Source of the DNA: an uncultured Acidobacteriota bacterium
GTDB taxonomy: Bacteria; Acidobacteriota; UBA6911; RPQK01; JAPXNP01
DNA: 64,000 bases
Assembly (NCBI GenBank): GCA_963777605.1
Contig: CAVZRV010000006.1
Span: 107,648-171,647, forward strand
Direction of reading: 5' to 3'
The notes beneath the pieces were generated by a model. That model did no database searches, was not told where the DNA came from, and was given only the letters and a program-made list of their open reading frames with translations. The position numbers were made by a program, and so were the translations under genes. This document shows positions 15,841-19,827 of the stretch, in pieces (the stretch's first letter is position 1; each line of letters starts with the position of its first letter).

Positions 15841-17310
15841 TTACTCGTAATACCACTTTGACATCCAGGGATCGCAAGTCCGGCGCTGAAACTCCTTCAG
15901 TTTTCCCTTGAGTTCCTCCAGCACGCTCGCGAAGTCCGGGTCTCCGGCAAGGTTCTTCGATTCCCAGGGGTCCTTGACGATGTCGTAGAGTTCGAACTCG
16001 GGCCGATGAATGTATTCCCCGACGGTTCGGGCTCCGTAGGGAGTCTCTGGTCCTTTTCGATAGGCGGCCTGCCAGGTTGCAGCAGCCCAAAGATCGGACG
16101 CAAATGGAAACGGCAGCGGATGGGCAATGTTCCAGATCAGCTTGTACTGACGGGTTCGGACGGCCCTCATCGGGTAGTACATCTGGAGCTCGTGAAAGGT
16201 GTGTGAAGCATAGGCCTCATCCCAGCCTTCCGGGTGCTCCTGCTCGAGAATCCCGAGGAAGGAGCGTCCGTGCAACCGGTGACGAGCGGGGAATTGGTCC
16301 CGCACGGCCGGAATGGTCACCTGATTCTCATATTCGGGTTGCTCGACCCCTGCAAAGTCCAGGATCGTCGGCGTGAGATCCGCCCAGTTCACCAGGGCGT
16401 CGTTTACAACTCCCCGCTTCACAAGATAGGGATTTCTGACGATGCAGGGCGACTTCAACCCCGGTTCGTAAACCGTCGTTTTGGCACCAGGAAAAGCGAT
16501 TCCATGATCCGAAATGTAGATGAACAGCGTGTCGTCAAACACGCCGATATCCTCGAGTACCTCGACCAGCATCCCGACTCCCTGGTCGAGACGGGACACG
16601 GACTGGTAATACTGGGCCAACTCAGCCCGGGCTTCCGGTGAGTCGGGAAGGAACGGCGGCACGATCACCTCCGACGGGTCATAAGTGATCGTCCGGATAT
16701 CCGGGTATCCGTCCGGCCGGTTGCCGAACCGGTCCGGACGAAGGGGAGACGACTCGACCACCCCCCCTCCGCGGTGCGGATCCGAGACACAAAAGTAAAG
16801 GAAAAAGGGCTCTTCGGTCGACTTCTCGATGAAGCCGCGACACTTGGCGATCATCTCGGACGGGCTTCGCTCCGAACCGGGGTAAAACTCGTCGAACTGA
16901 TAGACCGACTCGGGAGCGACGTGGTACTTGCCGACTGACGCGGTCCGATAGCCTTTCTCCCCCAGTAGAACCGGCAGGCTCTTGAGGTTTTCAAATGACC
17001 AGAAGTGGTTGTAGTCGTGCTGGTGTCCATACTGGCCGGTCCTGTGGTTGTAGAGCCCGGTCAGGATCACCGATCGACTGGCACTGCAGCTCGCAGTCGT
17101 CGCAAATGCGTTGGTGAACCGGGTGCCTCCCTCGGCCAGGGAATCCAGGTGCGGCGTCTGCACGACCGGGTTTCCATAGCAGCCGGCATCCTGCCCGTGG
17201 TCGTCGGCCACGAACAGAACGATATTCCGCTTAGCCGCGTAGCCATTCCGGGCACCAGCCAGCATCAACAGAACAAACCCGAAGACAATAACCCTACCGA
17301 GTTTCATCAC
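15841..17310 (-). CDS. sulfatase (heparan N-sulfatase/sulfamidase-like)
   Basis: ADDHG, formylglycine motif CSASR.VILTG, GKYHV, DPHR, SDHG, ELYDIVKDPWE; signal peptide. Confidence 0.95.
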   Translation of the reverse strand: MMKLGRVIVFGFVLLMLAGARNGYAAKRNIVLFVADDHGQDAGCYGNPVVQTPHLDSLAEGGTRFTNAFATTASCSASRSVILTGLYNHRTGQYGHQHDYNHFWSFENLKSLPVLLGEKGYRTASVGKYHVAPESVYQFDEFYPGSERSPSEMIAKCRGFIEKSTEEPFFLYFCVSDPHRGGGVVESSPLRPDRFGNRPDGYPDIRTITYDPSEVIVPPFLPDSPEARAELAQYYQSVSRLDQGVGMLVEVLEDIGVFDDTLFIYISDHGIAFPGAKTTVYEPGLKSPCIVRNPYLVKRGVVNDALVNWADLTPTILDFAGVEQPEYENQVTIPAVRDQFPARHRLHGRSFLGILEQEHPEGWDEAYASHTFHELQMYYPMRAVRTRQYKLIWNIAHPLPFPFASDLWAAATWQAAYRKGPETPYGARTVGEYIHRPEFELYDIVKDPWESKNLAGDPDFASVLEELKGKLKEFQRRTCDPWMSKWYYE

Positions 17311-17439
17311 AACCTCCGGTCGGGAATTCTAGCACCGCCTCCCAAGCTTCGACACCCCAGGCCGGCGTGCACGGCCAGGCTGCCCACCGCCGTGCTTCTT
17401 GAACTCGAATGATGGGCTCCGGTATCTTTGTGTGCAAGC

Positions 17440-17982
17440 ATGAAACTCCGGGTCACCCTTTTCTTGCTGTTCTTTATCGGTGTTGCGTTTGCCAATGACG
17501 CCGAGCTGAACACACTCAGCTTCGACGCCGATGCGCTCAAGCAGGAGTTCAACGCGACCAACGACCGCTCCAGGATGATCGTGATCCTGTCTCCGACCTG
17601 ACCGCATTGTCTTCAGAGGGCCTCTGAACTTGAACAAATTCTTGAGCAACTCCCAAACCGGCCGATCCGGGTCCTTCTCTTGTGGTCTCCGTTCATGCCG
17701 TACGACACTCGCGGCGCCGCTCAGCGAGCGACCACGTACGTCCCCGACGAGCGGGTGACTCAGTACTGGGATCTCTGGAAATACGGGTCGCGCACACTGG
17801 CACAGAAACTGGGGATTCCAGAACTTGAGGCGTGGGATCTGTTCGCCTTTTACAGACCCAATCTAAGCTGGAAGGACAAGACGCCCGAGCCCACCTTCTG
17901 GATGCAGGCCCGGGGACTCAAACACGGCGAAGAGTATTCCAAGGCGGCATTGACGAGCAAGCTGGAAACCTGGTTGCCCTGA
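17440..17982 (+). CDS. exported thioredoxin-fold selenoprotein (UxxC; TGA at 17599-17601 read as Sec)
   Basis: ATG 17440 is in frame with ORF 17680-17982; translation MKLRVTLFLLFFIGVAFA...IVILSPT-U-PHCLQRA...; a hairpin follows the TGA. Confidence 0.85.
17612..17628 (+). promoter_or_regulatory. candidate bacterial SECIS hairpin
   Basis: TTCAGAG-GGC-CTCTGAA, perfect 7-bp stem with a G-initial loop about 17 nt after the in-frame TGA. Confidence 0.7.
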
Positions 17983-18108
17983 TGTCCGAACCGGGCCACC
18001 GTGCCTTGATCTAGTCGAGCAAGTTGATTCCCCCCACAGCTTGCCATTCTCTATCACCTCTGTGCACAATCGGTGCGGGCACAGATCAAGTGCTCAAAGG
18101 CAGGCAAC

Positions 18109-19827
18109 ATGAATCGCTCTTCTTCCCCAATCTCTCTTCTCTTCATTCTCTCGGTCCTGGCAACGCTTTTCGTCCCTGCCGCGGCTGTAGCGCAACCGGC
18201 CCAGTCCGCTGTCGTGCGGATCGACCCGGGTTTGGCCCTGGTCGATTTCCTGGCCTTTGACCAGAGTGGAAAATTCGTCCCGGACCTGCGGGCGGACGAG
18301 GTGCAGCTCTTCGTTGACGGAAAGCCCGAGAAAGTTGATTTTTTCCAACTGGCTGACTTTCGCCCAGAACCGTCGGGTGGCGAATCCTCCCTGGGTTCGA
18401 CGCCGGGCAAGGAGTACACCGAGATCCGCGGCCCCAGCCCGATCATTTTCGTCTTTGACCTCGACAGTATGGAACCGAGCTCGCTGGCCCCTGCCCGGGA
18501 GTCTCTCAAGTCATTTCTTCAACAACCGCACCAAAATCGCCGTCTTTACATGCTTTTTGCGATTCAGGGTGGCCTCTCCCTGCGCTGCCGGTTGACTGAT
18601 GACCCGCAAGAGGTTCTCGATGCAGCAGAGTTGCTCACGATCAACCGAACCCCGGACACCTTCATCGGGCTGATCGAGCAGCTCGCCAAGACCTTCCGAA
18701 CCCTTGCCCCGGCTCGCCTCTATCTTCAGGCCATGCAGGATTCGGTCTCCGAAGCCAAGATCTTCGTCAATAACGCGATCAACCACTTGACGACCTTCAC
18801 CGAAGCGGCGACCGGGCTCGCCCACCAACTCGAGCCGCTTCCCGGTCGAAAGAGCGTGGTTCTGTATTCAAGCGGTTATCCGGTCACACCTTCGTCCACG
18901 GCTTTCCAGATCCTCCTCCAGTTCAACCACAGTGCCGGCCCTGAAGACATCATGCCGATGCACATACTGACCGCCCGGTTTGGCCAGCTGACGGATGAAA
19001 CCGGAACTGACCGGCTGCGGGCCGCACTCCGCGAACTCAACGGGAGTCAGACGTCCGTTTACGCAGTGAACACTGCCCGGTTGACTGGCGAGGGCCTGGC
19101 TAACTCTCCCGAGTCCCAATACATTCCTCGCTCTCTTCAGGGGCAGTACAACAGCGAGGACCGGAGCAGCCGAAAGTCGTTTCTCGAGCGCGTATCCGAT
19201 TCAACGGACGGGCTTTCGTCGGAGCTGACAGCGTTCGAAAAGCTCGAGAAACGGCTGCTTGAAGACAATTCCGCCTATTACGTCCTGGGGTTCCGGCCGT
19301 CCTGGAAGTTCAAGGAAGGATCGTTCAAGAAGTACGAGGTCAAGGTCGATCGGCCGGGAATTTCCGTTAAAGCCCGCTCCGGCTACCTGCTCCGCAAAGA
19401 GGACACGGCCCGGGACACGATTGAGTCCGCCTTTGAATTTCCCGAAGTATTTCGCGACTTCCCAACCGCGGGCACGGCCTCGGTGACAGGGAACCAGGTC
19501 TCGGTGCAACTTTCGATTCCCACCCAGGCGCTTCTATTCGGGACGGAGAACGGGAAGTGGGTTTGCAGGATTCGGGTATTAGGGGTGCTGGTCGATTCGT
19601 CGGGGACCTGGCAAACCGGGGGAAACAAGTACAGTATGGCCCGGGAGTTCAACCTCTCACTGGACAAGGCGCGCCTCGAGACATTGTTGAAGACCGCCAA
19701 CGTCACCGCTCCACTGACCGCCCAGGCACCGCCGGGACGCTACGAGCTGATCCTTGTCACCCGCCAGTGGCCGAGTGGAAGGGTCTCCACCTGGTACACC
19801 GACGTAGCGGTCCCGGAGCCCCAATAG
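18109..19827 (+). CDS. VWA-domain protein (VWFA-related acidobacterial family)
   Basis: VDFLAFDQSGKFVPDL..E.QLFVDGKP, PGRKSVVLYSSG, YYVLGFRP..VKVDRPG..ARSGY; signal peptide. Confidence 0.88.
   Translation: MNRSSSPISLLFILSVLATLFVPAAAVAQPAQSAVVRIDPGLALVDFLAFDQSGKFVPDLRADEVQLFVDGKPEKVDFFQLADFRPEPSGGESSLGSTPGKEYTEIRGPSPIIFVFDLDSMEPSSLAPARESLKSFLQQPHQNRRLYMLFAIQGGLSLRCRLTDDPQEVLDAAELLTINRTPDTFIGLIEQLAKTFRTLAPARLYLQAMQDSVSEAKIFVNNAINHLTTFTEAATGLAHQLEPLPGRKSVVLYSSGYPVTPSSTAFQILLQFNHSAGPEDIMPMHILTARFGQLTDETGTDRLRAALRELNGSQTSVYAVNTARLTGEGLANSPESQYIPRSLQGQYNSEDRSSRKSFLERVSDSTDGLSSELTAFEKLEKRLLEDNSAYYVLGFRPSWKFKEGSFKKYEVKVDRPGISVKARSGYLLRKEDTARDTIESAFEFPEVFRDFPTAGTASVTGNQVSVQLSIPTQALLFGTENGKWVCRIRVLGVLVDSSGTWQTGGNKYSMAREFNLSLDKARLETLLKTANVTAPLTAQAPPGRYELILVTRQWPSGRVSTWYTDVAVPEPQ

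Follow-up and report, generated by a model that had tools for sequence, protein, structure and literature searches.

We report that a stretch of DNA from an uncultured Acidobacteriota bacterium (contig CAVZRV010000006.1 of assembly GCA_963777605.1; 64,000 nucleotides, hereafter the window) carries one gene, at 17440..17982 on the forward strand, that ordinary gene finders cut in two at an in-frame TGA codon. The gene very probably encodes an exported selenoprotein of 180 residues, about 162 of them mature, that would act as a thioredoxin-like thiol/selenol-disulfide exchange catalyst, and we hold with high confidence that its internal UGA is recoded as selenocysteine (Sec), which makes it a real selenoprotein gene. 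Computation establishes the recoding signals, their conservation, the presence of the Sec machinery and the fold. An earlier note, made from the letters of the sequence, had proposed such a protein from an ATG at 17440, a single in-frame TGA and a frame running on to 17982, and all of these coordinates hold. The sole in-frame stop between ATG 17440 and the terminator, TGA 17980-17982, is TGA 17599-17601, in the context MIVILSPT-TGA-PHCLQR. The mechanical list of open reading frames (ORFs) breaks the gene into 17428/17440..17601 (57 amino acids from a TTG start) and 17680..17982. The coordinates of all features are collected in Table 1.

A database search with the read-through protein gave 15 matches, of which 14 are full length (160-183 amino acids, 40-52% identical), and full-length Cys homologues of 178-183 amino acids align end to end. 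All 14 carry C-P-H-C or C-G-H-C at the position of U-P-H-C in the window protein, and the fifteenth match is a C-terminal stump of 101 amino acids. In this alignment, no column that is invariant in the family is altered in the window protein, and a hydrophobic N-terminus is common to all homologues. Among the close Cys forms, the TGA is aligned to Cys alone and never to Trp. A profile of the database homologues, run over 61 genomes of the order to which the bacterium belongs, matched 58 of them with 94 matches, at one to four family copies per genome. By our own count of the rows, one of which comes from an unpublished genome (G018), 67 of the 94 contain exactly one in-frame TGA and 27 contain none. 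Seventy-one of these matches were read at the nucleotide level, at 70 loci (30 + 40 regions), one of which holds two copies; the remaining 23 comprise the unpublished one as well as matches that are weak or that are partial and lie at contig ends. The TGA falls exactly on the codon of the first Cys in 51 of the 71 copies, as SPTU[PG][HNSK]C, and TGC or TGT stands there in the other 20, so that the Sec codon proposed earlier is aligned to Cys or TGA in its homologues. The 51 TGA copies span 16 taxonomic families, with both halves of the gene conserved and in frame.

The family extends beyond this order. A phylum-wide sample of 301 genomes, searched with the profile at a match threshold of E<=1e-15, gave matches in 46. 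The close clade (E<1e-39) is confined to the window's order within this sample, and 26 genomes of other orders hold more distant relatives, in which 23 of 30 rows contain one TGA by our own count; four rows from other orders rest on unpublished genomes (G202 and G083). All 20 loci that were fetched from this search, 19 from other orders and one from the window's order and all from published genomes, contain SPTUxxC. In a tree of the 71 copies in which the Sec/Cys residue was masked, Sec forms occur in most clades, with Cys forms nested between them. The best tree requires seven changes between the Sec and Cys states, of which well-supported branches force one. The window gene lies in a Sec-only group of seven rows with a Shimodaira-Hasegawa-like approximate likelihood-ratio test (SH-aLRT) support of 92.

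Three individual loci deserve mention. A second family copy in the bacterium's own genome (C7:377181-377693, minus strand, locus L055) has a signal peptide, SPT-U-GH-C and a hairpin, and this genome therefore holds at least two Sec genes of the family. At locus L030 (G010:C14:129938-131072), a TGA copy and a Cys copy stand side by side on one strand and form a natural Sec/Cys comparison pair. The copy at G014:C5:1925697-1926219 was matched in two pieces (profile positions 6-56 with the TGA, then 57-179) and may be frameshifted or broken.

The genome of the bacterium (6.7 Mb, 96.7% complete) is equipped for Sec decoding. It contains selA (528 bits), selB (354 bits against a cut-off of 242), selD (363 bits) and selC, the gene of tRNA-Sec (70.5 bits, anticodon TCA, called tRNA-SeC by ARAGORN), all four above curated cut-offs. 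The selD gene (G000:C7:931111-932034, minus strand, locus L011) is itself a selenoprotein gene with a TGA, in KCAG-U-ASK. Among the related genomes, selA was matched in 55 of 61. One of the remaining six carries a Cys form alone; the other five carry TGA forms, and since all five have selB above the cut-off, selA is probably missing from their assemblies only.

The selenocysteine insertion sequence (SECIS)-type hairpin that the earlier note had described, perfect and with a G-initial loop about 17 nucleotides past the TGA, is present. It consists of TTCAGAG (17612-17618), GGC (17619-17621) and CTCTGAA (17622-17628); its helix starts 10 bases after the TGA, and 17 bases separate the A of the TGA from the first G of the loop. 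In an ungapped alignment of 47 TGA forms, in which the 8-bp helix of 17611-17618 with 17622-17629 gives 376 cells, standard pairing is found in 94.4% of cells versus 26-65% after a slide of the 3' partner by 1-3 columns. Compensatory double changes (C-G to G-C and G-C to A-U) occur at four of the eight pairs, in 28 cells, and in 500 shuffles the observed values for percentage paired, double-change cells and covariation score were never reached. The same columns in the 20 Cys forms are 38.8% paired, no better than when slid or shuffled, despite the similar peptides. Of the 20 phylum-wide loci, 15 retain at least seven of the eight pairs without a shift in register. The hairpin is thus conserved at a fixed distance, covaries and belongs to the TGA forms. 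The selD gene of the same genome has a 9-bp hairpin with a GGA loop that likewise starts 17 nucleotides after its UGA, so that SelB would encounter the same geometry in either gene. While the hairpin is at the ribosome, the UGA would be decoded as Sec by SelB and tRNA-Sec, the GG-initial loop being presented 17 bases after the UGA by a hairpin that starts 10 bases downstream and would direct the decoding.

The earlier note had also pointed to UxxC at the end of a beta strand as the typical motif of thioredoxin-fold selenoproteins, and modelling bears such a fold out, with the motif placed where a strand ends and helix 1 begins. An AlphaFold2 model built on 95 sequences reached a mean predicted local distance difference test (pLDDT) score of 93.4 and a predicted template modelling (pTM) score of 0.87, and it supersedes an earlier model from 14 sequences (pLDDT 74). 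In the model, strand 44-50 is followed by S-P-T and then by U54, which stands at the N-terminus of helix 55-70, the canonical position of a thioredoxin active site, and residues 1-21 lie outside the folded domain. Alignment by VIA-align gave M. tuberculosis DsbE (1lu4) as the best structural match, with Z 13.0 and a root-mean-square deviation (rmsd) of 2.7 over 123 residues at 16% identity, followed by ResA, Chlorobium DsbE, SdbA, DsbF, CcmG and TlpA (Z 10.6-12.7); Sco copper chaperones appear at Z of about 10. The model is confident and thus predicts a thioredoxin fold of the TlpA/ResA/DsbE-like class, in which Sec stands where helix 1 begins. The family signature comprises S-P-T-C/U-x-x-C, W-x-P, D, D-x-R, W-D, A-W-D-x-Y, W and P-x-P-x-F-W, and from the sequence P127, P149 and P151 are candidate prolines for a cis-proline loop. 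CxxC is found in 91 of 95 members of the wider family.

Table 1. Positions of the selenoprotein gene and its parts in the window
Feature	Position	Strand	Remark
Selenoprotein coding sequence	17440..17982	+	180 codons plus stop TGA 17980-17982; translated with TGA as U
Predicted Sec-type signal peptide, residues 1-18	17440..17493	+	MKLRVTLFLLFFIGVAFA, cleavage after A-F-A; sequence read by eye
Thioredoxin-like domain, residues 22-180	17503..17979	+	AlphaFold2 model and VIA-align matches
UGA codon of the proposed selenocysteine U54, with which the U-P-H-C redox motif opens	17599..17601	+	aligned to Cys or TGA in homologues
Codon TGT of the resolving Cys57 of U-x-x-C	17608..17610	+	Cys here in 91/95 wider-family members
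SECIS-type hairpin	17611..17629	+	stem 17612-17618 with 17622-17628, loop GGC 17619-17621
100-amino-acid ORF with TTG start	17680..17982	+	reported by mechanical gene calling instead of the whole gene

Several observations weigh against this interpretation. The window hairpin taken as a single sequence folds with a minimum free energy of -9.0 kcal/mol (z 0.53), and 138 of 200 shuffles fold equally well; because the window sequence alone is no better than chance, the significance of the hairpin had to come from the relatives. A scan of 17000-18500 found no SECIS family of Rfam at E<=10, only chance-level matches, and the outer pair 17611/17629, which is C-G in most relatives, is a C-C mismatch in the window. 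Two of the five measures of covariation are not exceptional: 76 of 500 shuffles reach the number of double-change pairs, and 454 of 500 reach the further pair types. The aligned TGA forms are also kin, and the shuffle counts therefore overstate the support. The window copy forms a long terminal branch (0.61) and shares no more than 58% identity with any relative, so that its conservation alone would also be compatible with decay of this copy. No neighbouring gene within flanks of 1.5 kb is conserved across 30 loci, and the neighbourhood consequently gives no substrate. Finally, neither DsbB nor VKOR was matched at E<=0.001 in the 96.7% complete genome, and a U-P-H-C oxidase would therefore be without its usual re-oxidant.

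We infer export, catalysis and the direction of the reaction from sequence and model. The N-terminus, MKLRVTLFLLFFIGVAFA followed by N-D, resembles a signal peptide by eye, with a basic start, a hydrophobic core and A-x-A. The pre-protein would accordingly be exported and its signal peptide cleaved, after which the mature domain would exchange a selenenylsulfide U54-C57 with substrate thiols or disulfides. The protein's most likely role is that of an extracytoplasmic catalyst of thiol/selenol-disulfide exchange. Within this explanation, a general periplasmic thiol-disulfide oxidoreductase has about an even chance of being the role, a role tied to the handling of copper or mercury is a lesser but serious possibility, and some other role is improbable. 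The genome contains an electron importer of the DsbD type (DsbD_TM) and, separately, a true DsbA-domain protein (C7:654530-655006), and the nearest folds are mostly DsbD/CcdA-dependent reductases. Because the importer is present and the re-oxidants DsbB and VKOR were not found, we lean towards a reductase- or isomerase-like role, or the protection of thiols at metal sites, and away from a classical DsbA oxidase. A single DsbD-type transmembrane domain was found, about 6.6 kb from selB (G000:C29:412511-413152 and C29:419808-421721).

Heavy metals offer the alternative that survives best, and we regard it as possible though doubtful. It accepts the selenoprotein as described but assigns it the task of heavy-metal handling, either the binding or transfer of Cu(I) or Hg(II) or the keeping of the cysteines of MerP/CopZ-type periplasmic metal binders in the reduced state, the Sec-Cys pair serving either as two very soft ligands of high affinity or as a reductant that acts fast on metal-site thiols, and not as a general disulfide catalyst. 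A profile search of protein databases yielded 413 relatives at E<=1e-10, and in 48 of the best 120 of these, by our own count, the family domain is fused to an HMA domain (PF00403). The source names of the HMA-fused relatives include 'copper chaperone CopZ', 'mercuric ion binding protein' and 'heavy-metal-associated domain-containing protein'; relative P0037 is fused to MerT, and the fused relatives P0044 and P0052 also begin with signal-like N-termini. The structural matches to Sco copper chaperones point the same way, and Haft and Gwadz (bioRxiv 10.1101/2022.07.06.499078) connect recently recognised families of selenoproteins with the mercury-resistance protein MerB, organometallic biochemistry and methylmercury biosynthesis.

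These fusions are, however, limited to distant relatives that are 27-37% identical, and the domain stands unfused in all 71 close copies. No metal gene was found among the eight neighbouring ORFs scanned between 11790 and 24335 of the window. The close clade keeps the His of U-P-H-C, but only 19 of 95 members of the wide family have it, which makes a Sco-like Cys-Cys-His site no feature of the family. The fused thioredoxin domain could equally be a redox helper, in which case a metal role would merge with the exchange catalyst proposed here. A metal role is therefore kept as a rival or a refinement, because the close clade is unfused and has neither a conserved neighbour nor a nearby metal gene. 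The fused database relatives include P0024, P0026, P0037, P0044, P0052, P0065 and P0092, and three long relatives carry a stretch that matches the NCBIfam 'DF family (seleno)protein' below its cut-off.

It is rather unlikely, in our estimate, that the gene is a real selenoprotein of a family already listed, for example under a name tied to a CDD model alone, such as cd02966. The class of fold is TlpA/ResA/DsbE-like, and one Joint Genome Institute (JGI) record names a Cys form 'thiol-disulfide isomerase/thioredoxin', both of which fit such a listing. None of 16 members matches AhpC-TSA, Redoxin or Thioredoxin_8, which we take to be the Pfam families corresponding to cd02966; for these three models (PF00578, PF08534 and PF13905), no match at E<=1 was obtained with the window protein or any of the 16 members. 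Weak matches below threshold are confined to Thioredoxin_4 (in 10 of the 16, best E 0.0013), Glutaredoxin (in eight) and Thioredoxin (in seven). Apart from chance-level matches to Integrase_Zn (0.082), TrbB (0.04) and PRK03321 (0.22), the window protein has no Pfam or NCBIfam match at E<=1; the earlier note could assign it to no named family, and neither collection claims it. Among solved structures, a search of PDB by sequence found no relative, the best E of 0.023 being confined to the CxxC region of PDI and thioredoxins.

NCBI names one Cys form 'DsbA family protein' and not TlpA, other Cys forms are 'hypothetical protein', and the Sec forms are stored as stumps of 96-115 amino acids, likewise 'hypothetical protein'. 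The word 'selenoprotein' is in no name shown among the best 120 of the 413 relatives. The nearest clusters of the ESM Atlas, queried with a natural Cys homologue, are also 'hypothetical protein' with no Pfam family in common.

A 2026 review (PMC13188914) lists 119 prokaryotic selenoprotein families or subfamilies in its Table 1, each with a domain identifier; some are identified by CDD or PANTHER models only (cd02966, cd02970, cd10141, cd01144 and PTHR43551), and these include UxxC families that are defined by cd02966 or cd02970 alone, which leaves room for a listed relative. The Pfam and NCBIfam identifiers in the available part of that table were matched neither by the window protein at E<=1 nor by other members (P0017-P0023 and others) at E<=0.01. 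The entry cd02966, 'thiol-disulfide isomerase-like protein', was first reported in the Sargasso Sea paper (PMC1088965). A 2006 survey (PMC1794560) gives three families and four selenoproteins in Acidobacteria, the deep-Sep study (PMC12013277) has one acidobacterium in its test set, with three known selenoprotein genes and no new one, and BSepDB (PMC13326102) is built from known families. In full-text searches of the literature on selenoproteins in Acidobacteria or Acidobacteriota and on new families in metagenome-assembled genomes, no description of such a family was found. By comparison with Pfam and NCBIfam identifiers, SPT-U-x-x-C is therefore probably a widespread acidobacterial selenoprotein family that is missing from current lists.

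The remaining alternative, in which the TGA is a true stop (of a pseudogene or of a pair of short, unrelated ORFs) or is read through without Sec (by near-cognate insertion of Trp or Cys, or under a reassigned code), draws on the non-significant single-sequence hairpin, the long branch of the window copy and the gene's own TGA terminator, from which UGA does serve as a stop in this organism, but it is very improbable and, given the comparison with relatives, close to refuted, because a nonsense mutation would not be inherited and kept at the same codon, with both halves in frame, across 51 of 71 copies in 16 families and 19 of 19 loci from other orders, and because the alignment of TGA to Cys and never to Trp in the close Cys forms, the hairpin of the TGA forms that the Cys forms lack, and the full Sec machinery in the genome all stand against it. 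Genetic code 4 or another reassignment was rejected, as the gene ends in TGA and its internal TGA aligns with Cys. A sequencing error was likewise rejected, the same codon being TGA in 51 related genes.

The surroundings of the gene add the following. Upstream lies a divergent sulfatase gene (15841-17310, minus strand; Pfam Sulfatase, E 1.8e-44); a functional link to it was rejected, as it is not a conserved neighbour in other genomes. Downstream, an ORF of 584 amino acids (18073-19827, plus strand) has a signal-like N-terminus and no Pfam match, and the sole sigma-70-like site of the region (18041-18070) precedes this ORF and not the selenoprotein gene. The 'neighbours' that seemed widely shared in the 30 loci are antisense shadow ORFs over the gene itself, and real neighbours are shared within one genus only. 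Among the public sequencing runs listed, four DNA runs (shares 0.04-0.10) yielded contigs that cover 17400-17589 and 17677-17827 and leave the TGA in the gap between them, and no RNA run was listed.

Acidobacteriota are among the most abundant soil bacteria, and their selenoproteomes are barely charted. Throughout an entire order, this one family contributes between one and four Sec genes per genome, and TGA forms occur in other orders too. Annotation pipelines and selenoprotein databases that are based on known families would miss SPT-U-x-x-C genes, and the value of the finding lies in the correction of a systematic mis-annotation in an abundant soil phylum. The family also offers a clean SECIS for Acidobacteriota, supported by covariation, from which searches for additional Sec genes of the phylum could start. 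The family is probably new but belongs to the commonest class of selenoproteins, with a thioredoxin fold and UxxC, so that the understanding of Sec decoding is unchanged and the surprise is moderate. The frequent heavy-metal fusions of the relatives are a testable lead on why an exported thiol oxidoreductase pays the cost of selenium. We tentatively suggest that SPT-U-x-x-C may be an undescribed, Acidobacteriota-wide family that serves as the envelope's main selenol redox or metal-thiol catalyst, and that, given how frequently MerP/CopZ-like HMA domains and also MerT are joined to it in relatives, it may link the use of selenium by soil bacteria to periplasmic copper or mercury handling in organisms in which neither DsbB nor VKOR was found.

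The closest known counterpart of the recoding signal is the bacterial SECIS of the E. coli fdhF type (the bSECISearch consensus). As in that element, the window hairpin lies just 3' of the UGA, within the coding sequence, and its apical loop begins with G. The bacterial SECIS consensus has a UGA-to-loop distance of 16-37 nucleotides, and the window distance falls inside this range. The window element differs in its short stem of 7-8 bp, its loop of three nucleotides (GGC; five if the closing G-C opens) and the lack of an evident bulged U.

Among protein families, C-P-H-C is the active-site tetrapeptide of the oxidising E. coli DsbA, and the Cys forms of the present family share it, with U-P-H-C in the window protein; export would be a further likeness. 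The window protein nevertheless matches neither DSBA (PF01323) nor Thioredoxin_4 (PF13462), and the top 50 structural matches shown for its model include no DsbA. The TlpA/ResA/CcmG/DsbE proteins (1lu4, B. subtilis ResA 2f9s and S. gordonii SdbA 5um7) are nearer in structure. Being secreted or membrane anchored, they resemble the window protein in its predicted export, and they share with its model a thioredoxin fold with an extra N-terminal strand and an inserted helix and the placement of the C-x-x-C (here U-x-x-C) motif where helix 1 begins; they match the window model with Z 12.4-13.0 and rmsd 2.7-3.3 over 123-127 residues (Foldseek E 2e-5 to 3e-4). The differences are an identity of 6-16% with the window protein, the lack of a match to their Pfam models, the replacement of their first Cys by Sec, and the family's own signature (SPT-U/C-x-x-C, W-x-P, D-x-R, W-D, A-W-D-x-Y and P-x-P-x-F-W), which was found in no named family.

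The known UxxC selenoproteins in PMC13188914 Table 1 include Sec-thioredoxin, the Prx-like thiol:disulfide oxidoreductase, DsbA-like form 1, the DsbG-like protein, the thiol:disulfide interchange protein, the thiol-disulfide isomerase-like protein, SaoT and the HUIPC-motif protein. Their Pfam and NCBIfam identifiers, as given there, set them apart from the window protein, which matches none of them at E<=1. The family described here nonetheless shares their plan: a UGA in place of the codon for the N-terminal Cys of CxxC, many Cys homologues, a SECIS element directly downstream and a probable redox function.

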